In this document: positions 21,985 through 40,361 of the stretch, piece after piece
Position numbering within the stretch: position 1 is the first letter of the stretch
Layout: the number at the start of each line of letters is the position of its first letter
DNA from: a virus
Length of the DNA stretch: 40,361 nucleotides
Reading direction: 5' to 3' (one strand)
Virus record (IMG/VR): IMGVR_UViG_3300045988_155968
Span: 1-40,361 of that record
Translations under genes and position numbers: made by a program
The notes under the pieces: generated by a model
Seen by the model: only the letters and a program-made list of their open reading frames with translations
The model's database searches: none
Told to the model about the DNA's origin: nothing

Positions 21985-22374
21985 ATGATTCTCTCGATTC
22001 CATACGAGACGCCGAGTAAGAAGAACTCCCGCGTGATTAACCGTCGCACGGGTCGTTCGTTCCCAAGCAAGGCGTACCGTGAATGGCACGAGAACGCGTC
22101 CCTGTGGCTAAAGTATCATTACAACCTCGCTCCGCAGGGAGACGGGCCGTTCATGCTCCGCATACGCTTCTATCACGGGACTAATGCGAGGTGCGATTCC
22201 GACAACAAGGTATCTTCGATTCTCGACCTTCTCGTCGATCTTGGAGTGCTCCCGGACGACCGATGGCAAGTCGTGCGGAACATAAACGTGAGCAACTTCT
22301 ACGAAAAAGGGCATCCATCCGTACAGATTGGAATTTTCCCGTTGACGGACACGGATAAATTGAGTATATTGTAG
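21985..22374 (+). CDS. rusA: RusA-family Holliday junction resolvase, 129 aa.
   Basis: The N-terminus ILSIPYETPSKKNSR...RRTGRSFPSKAYREW resembles the RusA opening, and acidic motifs RCDSDN and DDRWQV match RusA catalytic Asp clusters. It has an RBS (GAGGG). Confidence 0.65.
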   Translation: MILSIPYETPSKKNSRVINRRTGRSFPSKAYREWHENASLWLKYHYNLAPQGDGPFMLRIRFYHGTNARCDSDNKVSSILDLLVDLGVLPDDRWQVVRNINVSNFYEKGHPSVQIGIFPLTDTDKLSIL

Positions 22375-22448
22375 TAAACGCATGGGTTATCCCGTCGTTT
22401 AGTGTTGCGGGGATGGCCGAGAGGCCATCCCTATTTTTCATCCTCCTT

Positions 22449-22469
22449 ATGTGTGCCTTTCGTGTGCCA
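22449..22469 (+). repeat. 21-bp direct repeat ATGTGTGCCTTTCGTGTGCCA, copy 1, a candidate integrase arm-type site in attP.
   Basis: It is near-identical (20/21) to 22679..22699, and the two copies bracket the tRNA-Met. Confidence 0.5.
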
Positions 22470-22483
22470 CCACGTCCGAAAGC

Positions 22484-22557
22484 GGGGTTTTAGCTCAATC
22501 GGTTAGAGCGTCGGACTCATAACCCGTTGGTTCCCGGTTCAAGTCCGGGAGGCCCCA
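22484..22557 (+). tRNA. tRNA-Met (anticodon CAU), an initiator-like anticodon arm with two mismatches, lying inside the putative attP.
   Basis: Manual cloverleaf: acceptor GGGGTTT/AGGCCCC (two G-U pairs), D-arm GCTC-AATCGGTTA-GAGC, anticodon loop CTCATAA, T-arm CCCGG-TTCAAGT-CCGGG, discriminator A. The anticodon stem has only 3 clean pairs. Confidence 0.65.
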
Positions 22558-22560
22558 TTT

Positions 22561-22594
22561 ATAGCCGCTTCCGCTTCGGATGCGGCTATTTTGC
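22561..22594 (+). terminator. Strong hairpin plus T-run immediately after the tRNA.
   Basis: ATAGCCGCTTCCG-CTT-CGGATGCGGCTAT followed by TTTG. Confidence 0.5.
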
Positions 22595-22678
22595 TACATT
22601 CCGGCTTATTTTTATCTTTTCCACACCGAATTATCTGTTATCATGTATTATTATTTTCTATCTTGAAAAATCAAGTGT

Positions 22679-22699
22679 ATGTGTGCCTTTTGTGTGCCA
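22679..22699 (+). repeat. 21-bp direct repeat, copy 2 (ATGTGTGCCTTTTGTGTGCCA), immediately upstream of the integrase RBS.
   Basis: See copy 1. Confidence 0.5.
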
Positions 22700-22711
22700 G
22701 GAGATATACCA

Positions 22712-23743
22712 ATGAAGAACTACTCTATAAGCCAGCGCAAGAAGTCACGAGGGAACCTTACGTGGTACGGACGGACCTTCGAGAACGGAGTGCTGCTGTC
22801 GGAGATTTCACTGAAAACCGAACGGAAGGCCGACGCGAAGGCGTGGCTCGACGCGATGAACGCGTCGAGGTTCATGCCGGAGAACATGTTCCGCCTTCCG
22901 GGAACGGAAAAGGACATGGCAGTAAAGGACGCGGTGCGCTCGTTCATGGACTCCGTGTCGGCTTCCAACGGGACGGATTCGAACACCTACAGGGCGTACT
23001 CGTACAGGATAGCCCACTGGGCCCGTTTCTGCGAACGGAACGGGGTATCCACACTCGTTTCTTTCACGAGGGATATTGCGACAAGGTACGTGTCCGAAAC
23101 GGCCTCCACGCACGCCCCTAAGACCATGAGGGAGATGGTCAGACTCCTTCGCCAGTTCTTTGCGTGGTGCGCCGAGACCTATTCCATCGAAGGATACGAC
23201 CCGATGAAGACGGTGAAGTCTCCGAAGCTGGAGAAGCGCGAGAAGGCGTTCTGGACTCCGGCACAGATAGACGCCATTCTCGACAACGCGCCCACGCCGG
23301 AGTTCCGACTGTTCTGGGCTTTGATGGCGTTCGCTGGCCTACGGCACACGGAGGCGTGCTCGTTCGGCCCTTCATCGATCGTAGGCAAGGAGATAAGGGT
23401 AGTCGGCAAGGGTAACAAGGAAGCCTTTCTCCCCATAGGAAAAAGGCTCGAAAAGGAAATATCGGAAGTGAAAATCTACGACGGTATGTTTTCGACGCAG
23501 AGGTACAGGAAGTCGGAGCGTTGCATAGACACGCTAAAGAAGGCGGTGTCGGAAGCGGGTCTGCCGAGCGAGGACGCGACCAACCACAAGTTCCGTCACA
23601 GCTTCATATCGAATCTTCTCCGAAGCGGCGTGACCGTTCCGGCGACAGCGCGTCTAGCCCGTCACGAGGACCCGAAGGTGACGATGGAGACGTACTCGCA
23701 TCTGCTCCAGGAGGACTTGCAGGAGTCGATAGACGTTCTTTGA
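22712..23743 (+). CDS. int: Tyrosine integrase (phage integrase family).
   Basis: Box I AFAGLRHTEA (Arg), box II HKFRHSFISNLLRSG (H-x-x-R) and the catalytic Tyr in METYSHL are present, with an N-terminal core-binding-like domain. It has an RBS (AGGAGA). Confidence 0.9.
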   Translation: MKNYSISQRKKSRGNLTWYGRTFENGVLLSEISLKTERKADAKAWLDAMNASRFMPENMFRLPGTEKDMAVKDAVRSFMDSVSASNGTDSNTYRAYSYRIAHWARFCERNGVSTLVSFTRDIATRYVSETASTHAPKTMREMVRLLRQFFAWCAETYSIEGYDPMKTVKSPKLEKREKAFWTPAQIDAILDNAPTPEFRLFWALMAFAGLRHTEACSFGPSSIVGKEIRVVGKGNKEAFLPIGKRLEKEISEVKIYDGMFSTQRYRKSERCIDTLKKAVSEAGLPSEDATNHKFRHSFISNLLRSGVTVPATARLARHEDPKVTMETYSHLLQEDLQESIDVL

Positions 23744-23903
23744 GCTGCTTGACTTCGAGCATGAGGGTCCTCTTGTCTGCTAGGAGCTTCTTCCTGTCGT
23801 TGACGAGTTCGCGCACGGCGTCCATCACCACGGACTCTTCGAGGAGGGCTACGGGGTATCCGTAGAAGTTGATTACCTTTGAGTGTAGTTCTTCGTACAG
23901 CAT
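23604..23903 (-). CDS. Hypothetical protein, 99 aa, convergent with and overlapping the int 3' end.
   Basis: ORF only. The 140-nt overlap with int makes it uncertain, though it could be an excisionase-like or regulatory gene. Confidence 0.25.
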   Translation of the reverse strand: MLYEELHSKVINFYGYPVALLEESVVMDAVRELVNDRKKLLADKRTLMLEVKQLKERLSTPASPPGADASTSPSSPSGPRDGLDALSPERSRRFGEDSI

Positions 23904-24035: not shown

Positions 24036-24305
24036 CTAGCCGTTGTCAATCAAGTCCTTGATACGTTCACCGAGAACATCGACGTATTCCTGCATCGCCT
24101 TCGCCTGCTTGCGCCACAATTCCTTGTGGTGTGCGCTCACGGCTTCGGGATTAGCTTCGATAGACTTCTTGAGCTTTTCGAGCATCTGGCAAGTCGTGTT
24201 GCGTTCGATGGCGAGCTCGCAGACTACCTCGGAGTTCGAGCGTACTCTGCGACGTTCGCAGCAGTCAGAAATAGGTCTTAACAAGTTTTCATTTGCTTGT
24301 TCCAT
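24036..24305 (-). CDS. Hypothetical early protein, 89 aa.
   Basis: ORF with an RBS (AAAGGAAACAAA-ATG). Confidence 0.45.
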   Translation of the reverse strand: MEQANENLLRPISDCCERRRVRSNSEVVCELAIERNTTCQMLEKLKKSIEANPEAVSAHHKELWRKQAKAMQEYVDVLGERIKDLIDNG

Positions 24306-28441: not shown

Positions 28442-28475
28442 ATTACTTTATCCTTTAAGTTGAGGTTAAACTTAG

Positions 28476-28559
28476 CGGAAGATGGTGGACTCGAACCATC
28501 AAGCGGATTAACCGCGTCTCTTTAGCAAAGAGATTCCTTACCAGTTAGGCTAATCTTCC
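28476..28559 (-). tRNA. tRNA-Ser (anticodon GCU), type II with a long variable arm.
   Basis: Manual fold of the minus strand: acceptor GGAAGAT/ATCTTCC, D-loop AACTGGTAA, anticodon stem TCTCT/AGAGA with loop TTGCTAA, variable arm GCGG-TTAAT-CCGC, T-arm GATGG-TTCGAGT-CCACC, discriminator G. Confidence 0.7.
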
Positions 28560-39311: not shown

Positions 39312-40361
39312 TTGGGCGAGGTGGTCGAGGTTGTCCAGTTCACGAGCCCGAAGTTCAAGGTGCTGTACCCCGAGTACTCGAAGGGTAAGAAGTACCTCGT
39401 GTTCAAGGGCGGCCGCGCGAGCACTAAGAGCTGGAGCATAGCGAAGGCGCTCATAGACCATGCGTGCACCTACGAGGGATTGCGTGTCGTCTGCGGGCGC
39501 GAGATCATGAAGTCGATACAGGAGTCGAACAAGAAGCTCCTGGAGGACACGATAACGAGGGCCGGCAAGTGGGGCGATTTCAAGACCACCGCGAGCTACA
39601 TCGAGAACACGCGTACGGGTGCGCGTTTCACGTTCATGGGCATGAGGGACAACCCGAACAGCGTGAAGGGCCTAGAAGGCGTTGACATCTTCTGGGGCGA
39701 CGAGGCGGACAGTTTCAGCCAGGAATCCCTAGACCTCCTGTGCCCCACTATGCGTAAGCGCGGGTGCAAGGTGATTTTCAGCTACAACCCGCAGCTCCCG
39801 ACTACTCCGGTGGAGAAGTTGCAGCAGGACAGGGCGTCGCAGTGCGTGACGGTGTTCATCAACTACCTGGAGGTCCTCAAGTACCTCTCGCCGGAAGTGA
39901 TTTCCGAGGCGGAGGAGTGCAGGGAGAAGGAGCCGGAGAAGTACCGCTGGATATGGCTCGGCGAGTACAGGATGCAGTCGCAGGCCACGTTCATCCCGCT
40001 CCGTTTCGTTTCCGAGGGCTACAGGAAGCCGCCGGTAAGGACGAACGAGGGTGTCGTCGCCGGTCTCGACATCGGCCTTTTCCACGACAGGTGCGTGATG
40101 GTCGTTAGGCAGGGGCTGAACCTGCTGTTCGGCAAGGAATGGAAGATGGTTGAGAACAAGCTCCTCACCTCGCAGGTGGTGGGTCTTGTCGCGAAGTGGG
40201 GCGTGCAGCGCCTCGGCATAGACGCAGTGGGGCAGGGCTACCCCGTGTACCAGGACCTGAGGGCGGAGCTCGGCGAGGTGGCGGTGCCGCTGAACACGGG
40301 CGTGGAGGCGAGGAACCGGAAGAAGTACGTGCGCCTCAGGGACGAGATGTGGGGAATGGAG
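39312..40361 (+). CDS. terL: Terminase large subunit, N-terminal part, with a TTG start and GGAGGG RBS. It continues at 1..419 across the circular junction.
   Basis: Walker A-like VFKGGRASTKSWSIAKA and a Walker B/DEAD-like IFWGDEAD. The ORF is open to the window end and in frame with 3..419 because 40243..40361 equals 1..119. Confidence 0.85.
   Translation, partial: MGEVVEVVQFTSPKFKVLYPEYSKGKKYLVFKGGRASTKSWSIAKALIDHACTYEGLRVVCGREIMKSIQESNKKLLEDTITRAGKWGDFKTTASYIENTRTGARFTFMGMRDNPNSVKGLEGVDIFWGDEADSFSQESLDLLCPTMRKRGCKVIFSYNPQLPTTPVEKLQQDRASQCVTVFINYLEVLKYLSPEVISEAEECREKEPEKYRWIWLGEYRMQSQATFIPLRFVSEGYRKPPVRTNEGVVAGLDIGLFHDRCVMVVRQGLNLLFGKEWKMVENKLLTSQVVGLVAKWGVQRLGIDAVGQGYPVYQDLRAELGEVAVPLNTGVEARNRKKYVRLRDEMWGME
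40243..40361. repeat. 119-bp terminal duplication identical to 1..119 (circular contig closure).
   Basis: Exact identity of the window start and end. Confidence 0.95.

Follow-up and report, generated by a model that had tools for sequence, protein, structure and literature searches.

A complete tRNA gene between paired repeats as the probable attachment site of a temperate Fibrobacter phage

Why should a phage genome hold a complete tRNA gene between two direct repeats, immediately in front of an integrase gene? The question is raised by the IMG/VR virus record IMGVR_UViG_3300045988_155968, whose 40,361 nucleotides were analysed as a whole and are called the window below. The two ends of the window (positions 1-119 and 40243-40361) are identical over 119 nt, and it is therefore a circularly closed assembly (k=119), that is, a free phage genome of ~40.2 kb in the form that carries the phage attachment site (attP). 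The answer that we favour, at a probability of roughly 0.85, is that positions 22409-22711 and the adjoining integrase gene (int) form the attP-int integration module of a temperate Fibrobacter phage, in which the core of attP lies within the tRNA and the repeats are arm-type sites of the integrase (Int).

The tRNA and its counterpart in the host chromosome

The tRNA is a full-length gene of 74 nt on the plus strand (22484-22557) with the anticodon CAT, and it holds the attP core. Its fold is accepted both by ARAGORN and by the Rfam model RF00005, which it matches over the full model (1-71) with a score of 63.4 bits (E 1.3e-11; gathering score 29). The Rfam alignment also recovers, as the non-standard pairs U27.U43 and A31.C39, the T-T and A-C mismatches of the anticodon stem to which the initial annotation had drawn attention. 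That annotation took the gene for an initiator-like tRNA-Met (CAU). The CAU tRNA stands, but the Met isotype is probably wrong, and so is the likeness to an initiator; the 'Met' label of ARAGORN reflects the anticodon only. Initiator tRNAs are recognised by A11-U24 or C1.A72, and isoleucine is told from methionine by pair 3-70, where G3-C70 is an indicator of tRNA-Ile(CAT) and C3-G70 is usual in Met and fMet (Silva et al. 2006, PMC1635315). The tRNA of the window has G3-C70, together with C11-G24 and G1-C72, which exclude fMet. Moreover, its best E. coli match covers 85-91% of the length and is annotated as tRNA-Ile, whereas matches to tRNA-Met reach only 54%. Because G3-C70 is present, initiator features are absent and the best E. 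coli match is a tRNA-Ile, we read the gene as probably tRNA-Ile2, the lysidine-dependent decoder of AUA, and not as tRNA-Met. More generally, CAU tRNAs called 'Met' by their anticodon can be tRNA-Ile2, which is a trap for annotation.

A scan for host sites, in which Joint Genome Institute (JGI) metagenomes were searched with the 3' 46 nt of the tRNA, returned 64 loci, and IMG/VR added 5 more. About 49 of these, namely those with enough flank to score, are empty chromosomal sites, with a conserved host gene upstream (reading ...GGATTCCACTACGAATGGG...AAATATTTACTAATTTTGGGTGAGCTG), a host terminator downstream and no int downstream. The host flank preceding the tRNA ends in TTTACTAATTTTGGG[CT]GAGCTG, and the flank of the empty sites is also present in contigs of Fibrobacter metagenome-assembled genomes (MAGs); in the window, the phage sequence reads GTGTGCCACCACGTCCGAAAGC on the 5' side of the tRNA and TTTATAGCCGCTTCC on its 3' side. 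The commonest host allele (18 copies, GGGGCTTTAGCTCAATCGGTTAGAGCGTCGGACTCATAACCCGTTGG...) differs from the window tRNA at 1 of 74 nt, T5 for host C5, a change that keeps a G.U pair, and positions 22512-22557 equal the host gene exactly in dozens of contigs. Judged by its sequence, the tRNA in attP is a copy of the host Fibrobacter gene. Since the host allele carries the same anticodon arm, the imperfect stem is native and not decayed; a decaying pseudo-tRNA is ruled out because U27.U43 and A31.C39 are native to the host gene, and with it falls the earlier suggestion of a decaying duplicate.

Directly 3' of the tRNA lies a phage-borne terminator on the plus strand (22561-22594), composed of a hairpin found as an inverted repeat (22561-22589) and a T-run (fold -18.9 kcal/mol, z -5.18). 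A hairpin stands at the same place in every related attP and at every host site, and that of the phage would terminate the tRNA gene reconstituted at the left prophage junction (attL).

Junctions, core and arm-type repeats

Signs of recombination at the tRNA come from relatives, whose int genes were obtained by an alignment-based scan. In a 1.9-kb contig (L074; int 95% identical to that of the window), the first 21 nt are host flank, found exactly in 4 host contigs, and are followed by a host-type tRNA, the phage terminator, the right-hand direct repeat (DR2) and int. The attP form of this phage (L072) has the left repeat and a leader instead, and its D-loop reads C where L074 has the host T, so that the switch from host to phage would lie 3' of the D-loop. 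L074 is arranged as the attL of a close relative would be.

A further set of junctions belongs to more divergent elements (int 54%) that are integrated in Fibrobacter MAGs (L003-L009). Their attL junctions join variable host flanks and tRNA 5' halves to a constant element, whose DNA (ATCAACCCAGCCCC...) begins directly after ...CGGACT, ~290 bp upstream of int. The matching right junction (attR) is L140, where the element repeat (TTGTGAGCTTTTTGTGAGA), filler and AGAGCAGCGGACT are followed by the host 3' half and by a host downstream flank that is the same as at the empty sites L097 and L101; two IMG/VR prophages (L158 and L159) carry the same int as these elements. The attP of the L003 type shares only about AGAGCAGCGGACT..AACCC with the tRNA, and these elements insert at the same tRNA gene. 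No tRNA is called in L003-L009 or L140, these elements restoring the tRNA at neither junction, and no compensating tRNA was found in the 10 kb of sequence available. In addition, patterns for the left repeat (DR1), the L003-type attP and the L003-type P arm had no matches in IMG/VR, because of which the free form of the tRNA-splitting element and any compensating tRNA are unseen. A tRNA of another isotype occupies the corresponding place in a 61-kb phage contig (L002; int 51%), whose attP holds only the part of tRNA-Lys(CTT) that begins with the anticodon stem and ends at the 3' terminus. This is a classical partial attP for tRNA-Lys with the same layout as the window, and in two other loci (L012 and L015) a full tRNA-Lys lies upstream of a related int.

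Contig ends also fall at the tRNA. Five phage contigs (L073, L075, L076, L152 and L154) and two host contigs (L086 and L102) start inside it, and others end at it; such breaks are to be expected of a 74-nt stretch that is present in two contexts within one sample. The tRNA of the window is not itself an assembly chimera, which is ruled out by full-tRNA attPs in independent contigs from different samples (L072, L077-L080, L131, L156 and L157). Apart from the Met isotype, the proposal in the initial annotation that the phage integrates at a host tRNA agrees with the relatives found at this very gene (attL in L074 and L003-L009, attR in L140). Its call for a search for prophages flanked by the tRNA fragment led to attL and attR in relatives and to none for the exact phage. 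None of the three signs that it had named as speaking against the idea, rejection of the fold by tRNA scanners, integrated relatives at a non-tRNA site and a core identity lying elsewhere, appeared: two scanners accept the fold, the integrated relatives sit at the same tRNA and not elsewhere, and the core maps within the tRNA.

Within the tRNA, the putative core can be read from the sequence as an imperfect dyad, GGTTA (22501-22505) ... TAACC (22520-22524), which spans 22501-22524 and whose halves, lying around the overlap, could be core-type Int sites. Junctions and polymorphism in relatives place the inferred strand-exchange (overlap) zone at GTCGGACT (22510-22517), in which GT (22510-22511) corresponds to tRNA positions 26-27 and CGGACT to positions 28-33. 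Its left limit is set by partial-type attPs, which match the tRNA only from ~(T)AGAGC (tRNA positions 21-25), and its right limit by the L003-type elements, in which host and element switch right after CGGACT at both junctions, L140 being the mirror image. Positions 26-27 vary among the 49 empty host sites, reading GT in 17, AG in 13, CG in 11 and CA in 8, and the rest of the tRNA is invariant per backbone. For example, L091 (GT) and L145 (CA) are 100% identical over 60 nt upstream and 42 nt downstream, and L113 (GT) likewise differs from L116 and L122 (CG) only at the dinucleotide. The same alleles split similar phage attPs (L095 CG/L127 CA, L126 CG/L135 AG, L118 GT/L151 AG and L092 CG/L146 AG), the former two pairs being otherwise identical and the latter two also differing at two or three filler bases. 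Because these attP pairs have only ~6 nt of homology left of the dinucleotide, homologous recombination is unlikely, and the simplest reading is that the two bases lie inside the exchanged segment, which would put the overlap at ~22510-22516/7 (GTCGGAC[T]). The exact cleavage positions are deduced in the same manner, and the dinucleotide may mark an overlap with tolerance of heterology or with allele matching.

The two 21-bp direct repeats described earlier on either side of the tRNA are both present: the 40 kb contain just two copies of ATGTGTGCCTTT[C/T]GTGTGCCA, located at 22449-22469 and 22679-22699, where chance would give 0.01 matches, and at least two copies were seen in 0 of 100 shuffles. 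One extra shared base makes them 22 bp long, so that DR1, the P-arm pair, covers 22448-22469 and DR2, the P'-arm pair, covers 22678-22699, both on the plus strand and both putative arm-type sites. Each is composed of two GTGTGCC units 11 bp apart (22451-22457 and 22462-22468 in DR1, 22681-22687 and 22692-22698 in DR2), and the window has only one other exact GTGTGCC, which lies within int on the minus strand. Counted relative to the C of CGGACT, the units start at -61, -50, +169/170 and +180/181 in 11 of 11 attP-form loci (the window, L072, L077, L131, L118, L151, L155, L156, L157, L095 and L127; int 61-100% identical). This geometry is kept despite divergence of the terminators and of most of the right arm, and it is kept in L118, L151, L155, L095 and L127, in which the 26 nt from leader to core are non-tRNA filler.

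In distant clades (int 35-38%), the layout is retained and the motif is different. It is xCACCAC in L126 and L143, with a pair of units at -62/-51 or -60/-49 on the left and, from +181 onwards, three to four on the right; of xCACCAC type in L092, with a weaker left pair at -61/-47 and units at +196 and +219; and GTGCAAC in L147, at -63/-51 and +202/+213. The L003/L140 element has GTGAGC/GTGAGA in both arms, and the tRNA-Lys phage L002 has GTGTGC-type repeats on both sides. The motif varies with the int clade, and the P and P' arm motifs always match within a phage. This co-variation is what one would predict if the phage's own recombinase reads the sites, and not what host promoters or scars should show. 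Given the fixed positions and a motif that co-varies from arm to arm and with the int clade, the view that the repeats are arm-type sites of a lambda-like integrase, which the initial annotation already held, is strongly supported by comparison with relatives, and Int is predicted to bind them physically.

The P' arm has a further conserved feature, an A/T-rich block on the plus strand (GTTATCATGTATTATTATTTTCTATCTTGAAAAATCAAG, 22637-22675) with TTATCAT and TTATTAT 11 bp apart. The block is kept in the window, L072, L077, L118, L151, L155, L156 and L157 while its surroundings diverge, and it is a candidate for accessory-factor sites (of the excisionase Xis or of a host bending protein) and/or the int promoter. 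DR2 ends 12 nt upstream of the int ATG. Because it lies between this A/T-rich upstream region and the ribosome-binding site (RBS), Int binding there could also autoregulate or damp int expression. One relative has a different arrangement (L153:2870-3000; ENA ERZ941534, k127 contig; int 89%): the tRNA part, core and terminator are gone and a single hybrid repeat, ACGTGTGCCTTTTGTGTGCC, stands before int, apparently through a repeat-mediated deletion that left the phage without attP.

The integrase gene follows just downstream of the tRNA, as first annotated. With its RBS (GGAGA, 22700-22704) it occupies 22700-23743 on the plus strand; the ATG at 22712 lies 154 nt past the tRNA, and the product has 343 aa. 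It matches Pfam PF00589 (8.8e-14) and PHROG 1 (integrase; 6.7e-47), residues R211, H292-x-x-R295, H318 and Y328 are invariant in 28 homologues, and a Foldseek search with its model matches lambda Int, Xer and Cre. By these features the product is a tyrosine recombinase with the required catalytic residues. The AlphaFold model (mean predicted local distance difference test score, pLDDT, 84.9) comprises an N-terminal domain, a linker, a core-binding domain and a catalytic domain. The N-terminal domain (residues 2-52) has a beta-beta-beta-alpha fold with strands at 2-6, 18-24 and 27-33 and a helix at 39-52, and it is followed by a low-confidence linker (53-70). In a search of the PDB, the only structures whose alignment extends over nearly the whole of Int are full-length chains of lambda Int (1z1g, 1z1b and 5j0n; 340-362 columns). 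The model suggests that Int is heterobivalent and lambda-like, with a separate N-terminal arm-binding domain.

Under the mechanism that we propose, the C-terminal domains of this lambda-like heterobivalent Int would bind the core in the anticodon-arm region (~22501-22524), and its N-terminal domain would bind the two GTGTGCC pairs, 50-61 bp to the left and 169-180 bp to the right of the core. Strand exchange with the identical host sequence at the overlap would then insert the phage. The attL junction would bring the promoter and the tRNA 5' half of the host together with the 3' half and the terminator of the phage, leaving the host gene intact, and attR would receive a second full-length copy of the tRNA because the phage also carries the 5' half.

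Several points weigh against this scheme. L074 is the sole lysogen junction for a close relative and has only 21 nt of host flank; in principle it could be a mis-join made by the assembler through the shared 74-nt tRNA. For the exact phage, look-ups of its own int and RusA gave only attP-type contigs and no attL or attR. The right limit of the crossover rests on elements whose int is only 54% identical, residues 1-80 of Int match no Pfam arm-binding family, and the repeats adjoining int could additionally or instead serve a regulator. Other searches bear on the coverage of relatives: look-ups of P0002-P0008 gave no lysogen junction either, L074 excepted, a single-protein search for close int relatives found none in species-representative genomes or IMG/VR, and the contig location of a homologue in Fibrobacter sp. 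UWH4 (P0044) was not found.

The full-length copy, rival explanations and the surrounding genome

If the tRNA serves as attP, is the whole of it needed? A full tRNA is present in the attP of the window, L157 (int 94%), L072 (95%), L131 (89%), L077 (81%) and L156 (80%), and only its 3' part in that of L118 (94%), L151 and L155 (both 89%) and L095/L127 (61%). Because L118, L151 and L155, close relatives with int at 89-94%, carry tRNA positions ~22-76 only, the 5' half appears to be dispensable for attP, and the idea raised in the initial annotation that only the 3' part matters is borne out for recombination. The filler of partial attPs is identical to the tRNA 5' half at 3-9 of the first 19 positions, which is about what chance gives when the filler is tested as a decayed 5' half; the 5' half may have been either gained or lost. 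Where the 5' half is present, 25 of its 26 positions equal the host in six phage lineages, beside a leader that differs at up to 7 of 15 positions (window against L077). It would seem to have been preserved either by selection for a function or by repeated conversion against the host copy.

Such a function might be decoding, and one may argue that the tRNA is chiefly a working phage tRNA-Ile2 for AUA codons, with attP secondary or absent and the repeats acting as expression signals. The intact structure of the copy, its G3-C70 pair and E. coli match, the conserved 5' half next to a diverging leader, the presence of a second phage tRNA (Ser-GCT) and the place of each repeat just upstream of a gene all suit this explanation, as does codon usage: 39% of the phage's Ile codons are AUA (18.9 per 1000), against 9% (5.2 per 1000) in host open reading frames (ORFs) of at least 200 aa from host contigs L082-L144. 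The share of AUA is 33-39% in full-tRNA relatives, 26-35% in partial-type relatives of the clade and 13-22% in most of the more distant relatives, with an outlier of 49% in one 3-kb locus. We nevertheless consider this explanation improbable. Phages with int at 89-94% keep the same repeats at the same distances around the 3' part only, which needs no promoter, and they are AUA-rich too. In L156 (Logan SRR30724629), a T at position 3 creates a U3.C70 acceptor mismatch, a hint that selection does not act on the 5' half in every case. Furthermore, no recognisable or host-type promoter was found before the phage tRNA, a scan for sigma-70 promoters was of no help for either the tRNA or int, there is a strong terminator 50 nt upstream of the tRNA, and the junction contigs show recombination at this gene. 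A working phage tRNA, if the copy is expressed, is plausible as a role added to attP but not as one that replaces it. It is tentative, and on balance doubtful, that attP lies within a functional tRNA-Ile2 gene used by an AUA-rich phage and that bases 26-27 are exchanged between phage and host populations. If true, one element would be both attachment site and codon supply, and integration would duplicate tRNA-Ile2 in the lysogen; the integrase would tolerate heterology at positions 26-27, or hosts and phages would be engaged in an allele-matching contest at the bacterial attachment site (attB), and the four alleles common to hosts and phages on otherwise identical backgrounds would be explained.

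The remaining explanations concern the repeats. With attP still in the tRNA, the GTGTGCC units might be operators of another phage protein, such as a repressor, an Xis-like protein or a transcription factor. DR2 has a typical operator place, downstream of the likely int promoter region and ahead of the RBS, and since neither a Pfam arm-binding domain in Int nor an excisionase or regulator was identified, another DNA-binding protein might be at work. This we hold to be very improbable given that the motif co-varies with the int clade on both sides and at fixed distances, distant lineages included, that the repeat is absent elsewhere in the genome, and that Int has a lambda-like N-terminal domain; in the prophage, moreover, the repeat pairs would be ~40 kb apart, which is sensible for recombination and not for regulation of int. 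That the repeats are functionless scars of tRNA acquisition, left by a target-site duplication or a mobile tRNA cassette, is barely conceivable. Direct repeats do flank the tRNA, and L153 has lost all between them, but repeats also flank partial tRNAs and tRNA-Lys fragments in other phages, they are internally tandem in an 11-bp phase, and their positions are fixed over 61-100% int identity with clade-specific sequence, where scars would decay and not co-vary. The reading of the locus as an attP-int module with arm-type repeats is accordingly retained.

The genome around the module is that of a phage, its genes being phage genes by Pfam and PHROG. Structural genes on the plus strand run up to a RusA ORF (21985-22374; Pfam, PHROG), then come the tRNA and int, and then an early region on the minus strand. 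Between RusA and DR1, a terminator scan found an intrinsic hairpin followed by TATTTTT (22409-22432, plus strand; fold -21.3 kcal/mol, z -4.35), which closes the RusA/late operon upstream and marks the left edge of the attP region. A protein of the tail region contains a Fib_succ_major domain (Pfam), and int homologues down to ~30% identity occur mostly in Fibrobacter or Fibrobacterota genomes and MAGs; these ties link the phage to Fibrobacter, a rumen bacterium. In a single study, MAG bins assigned to Eggerthellaceae, Sodaliphilus, Alistipes, Oscillospiraceae and Methanomethylophilaceae hold contigs with this int family (L010-L014, L020, L021 and L033), which are probably mis-binned phage or Fibrobacter contigs.

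Past the 3' end of int, a 99-aa ORF on the opposite strand (23604-23903, minus) overlaps it by 140 nt and gene calling picks it up in every close relative. Neither Pfam nor PHROG gives it a match; its position would suit an excisionase or regulator, and Pfam and PHROG searches of the small ORFs adjoining int found no excisionase. Among the first genes past int is one for a crAss001_48/Sequestin-like protein (24036-24305, minus), and in L077, L154, L155, L156 and L157 Acb2/Tad1-like, Tad2-like and RtcB genes adjoin int; these first genes look like anti-defence or RNA-repair cargo. The second phage tRNA, tRNA-Ser(GCT), lies at 28475-28559 on the minus strand and has a long variable arm (ARAGORN; Rfam 46.6 bits). 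Compared with the host, the phage shows no enrichment of the codons AGC and AGT.

Comparison with known integration systems

How does this module relate to those already described? Sublocation classes for integration in tRNA genes are said to have been set out by Williams in 2002. Lambda-type heterobivalent integration modules target tRNA genes at the anticodon arm, for example in HP1, P22 and mycobacteriophage L5 (Reiter/Campbell). The module in the window resembles them in that int adjoins attP, the integrase has three domains, tandem arm repeats lie on both sides, and attP matches the host exactly from the crossover up to the tRNA's 3' end, so that the gene would be restored at the int-proximal junction. 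It differs in that its attP holds the whole tRNA including the 5' half, for which reason integration should duplicate the gene, and in that the motif and geometry of the arm sites are specific to this phage group. By the features tested, it would count as a member of the classical tRNA-targeting lambda-type integration systems.

Another relationship between phage and tRNA is the tRNA-dependent lysogeny of actinobacteriophages, in which a common core of only ~10 bp is shared, integration destroys the host tRNA, and the loss is made good by a separate tRNA of the phage (PMC10865867). These phages have a tyrosine integrase with an N-terminal arm-binding domain and paired arm-type sites around a core that overlaps the tRNA (Guerrero-Bustamante & Hatfull 2024, PMC10865867). 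The window shares the predicted N-terminal arm-binding domain, the putative paired arm sites and the core overlapping a host tRNA, but here the whole tRNA stretch is identical in attP and attB, the gene would be rebuilt, and it is the phage tRNA that serves as the attP. Membership of the window in that system is rejected, as a complete tRNA in attP would be rebuilt at both junctions. The L003-type relatives (int 54%), which restore the tRNA at neither junction, do resemble the system.

Large lytic phages, such as Acinetobacter phage ZZ1 and T4-like Enterobacter phages, also carry CAU tRNAs, annotated 'tRNA-Ile(CAU)' or 'tRNA-Met', with which the window tRNA shares 80-90% identity over 65-70 nt. 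Unlike the tRNA of the window, they stand in tRNA clusters with no adjacent integrase or arm repeats and are plausibly used for decoding rare codons; the likeness is one of general tRNA similarity, not of shared module ancestry. With regard to the variable dinucleotide, IntDOT of CTnDOT and the Int of Tn916 are tyrosine recombinases that tolerate heterology, with 'coupling sequences'. The 2-nt polymorphism would be accounted for if, as there, a short exchanged segment differed between the partners and were carried over, which we offer as a lead only; in contrast to those coupling sequences, the remainder of the overlap (CGGAC) does not vary here.

In literature searches on Fibrobacter phages and prophages, no paper describing a phage of this sort or the way it integrates was found among titles and abstracts. 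The module would provide an integration system for phages of this host, with int, a core, four arm sites and attB, and the host is important for fibre breakdown in the rumen and has few genetic tools. Phage integration modules are the usual basis for integrating vectors. In addition, the attPs at one tRNA locus form a series, from the full tRNA through its 3' part to a minimal core that splits the gene and a repeat-mediated deletion, and this series is a comparative system for the evolution of tRNA-targeting attachment sites. What stands out against the known systems is a complete tRNA, probably Ile2, inside the attP of an AUA-rich phage, the clean geometry and co-variation of the arm sites, and a two-base polymorphism shared at the inferred overlap. 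In summary, the attP-int of the window appears to be a well-known kind of module, unusually well defined by its relatives.

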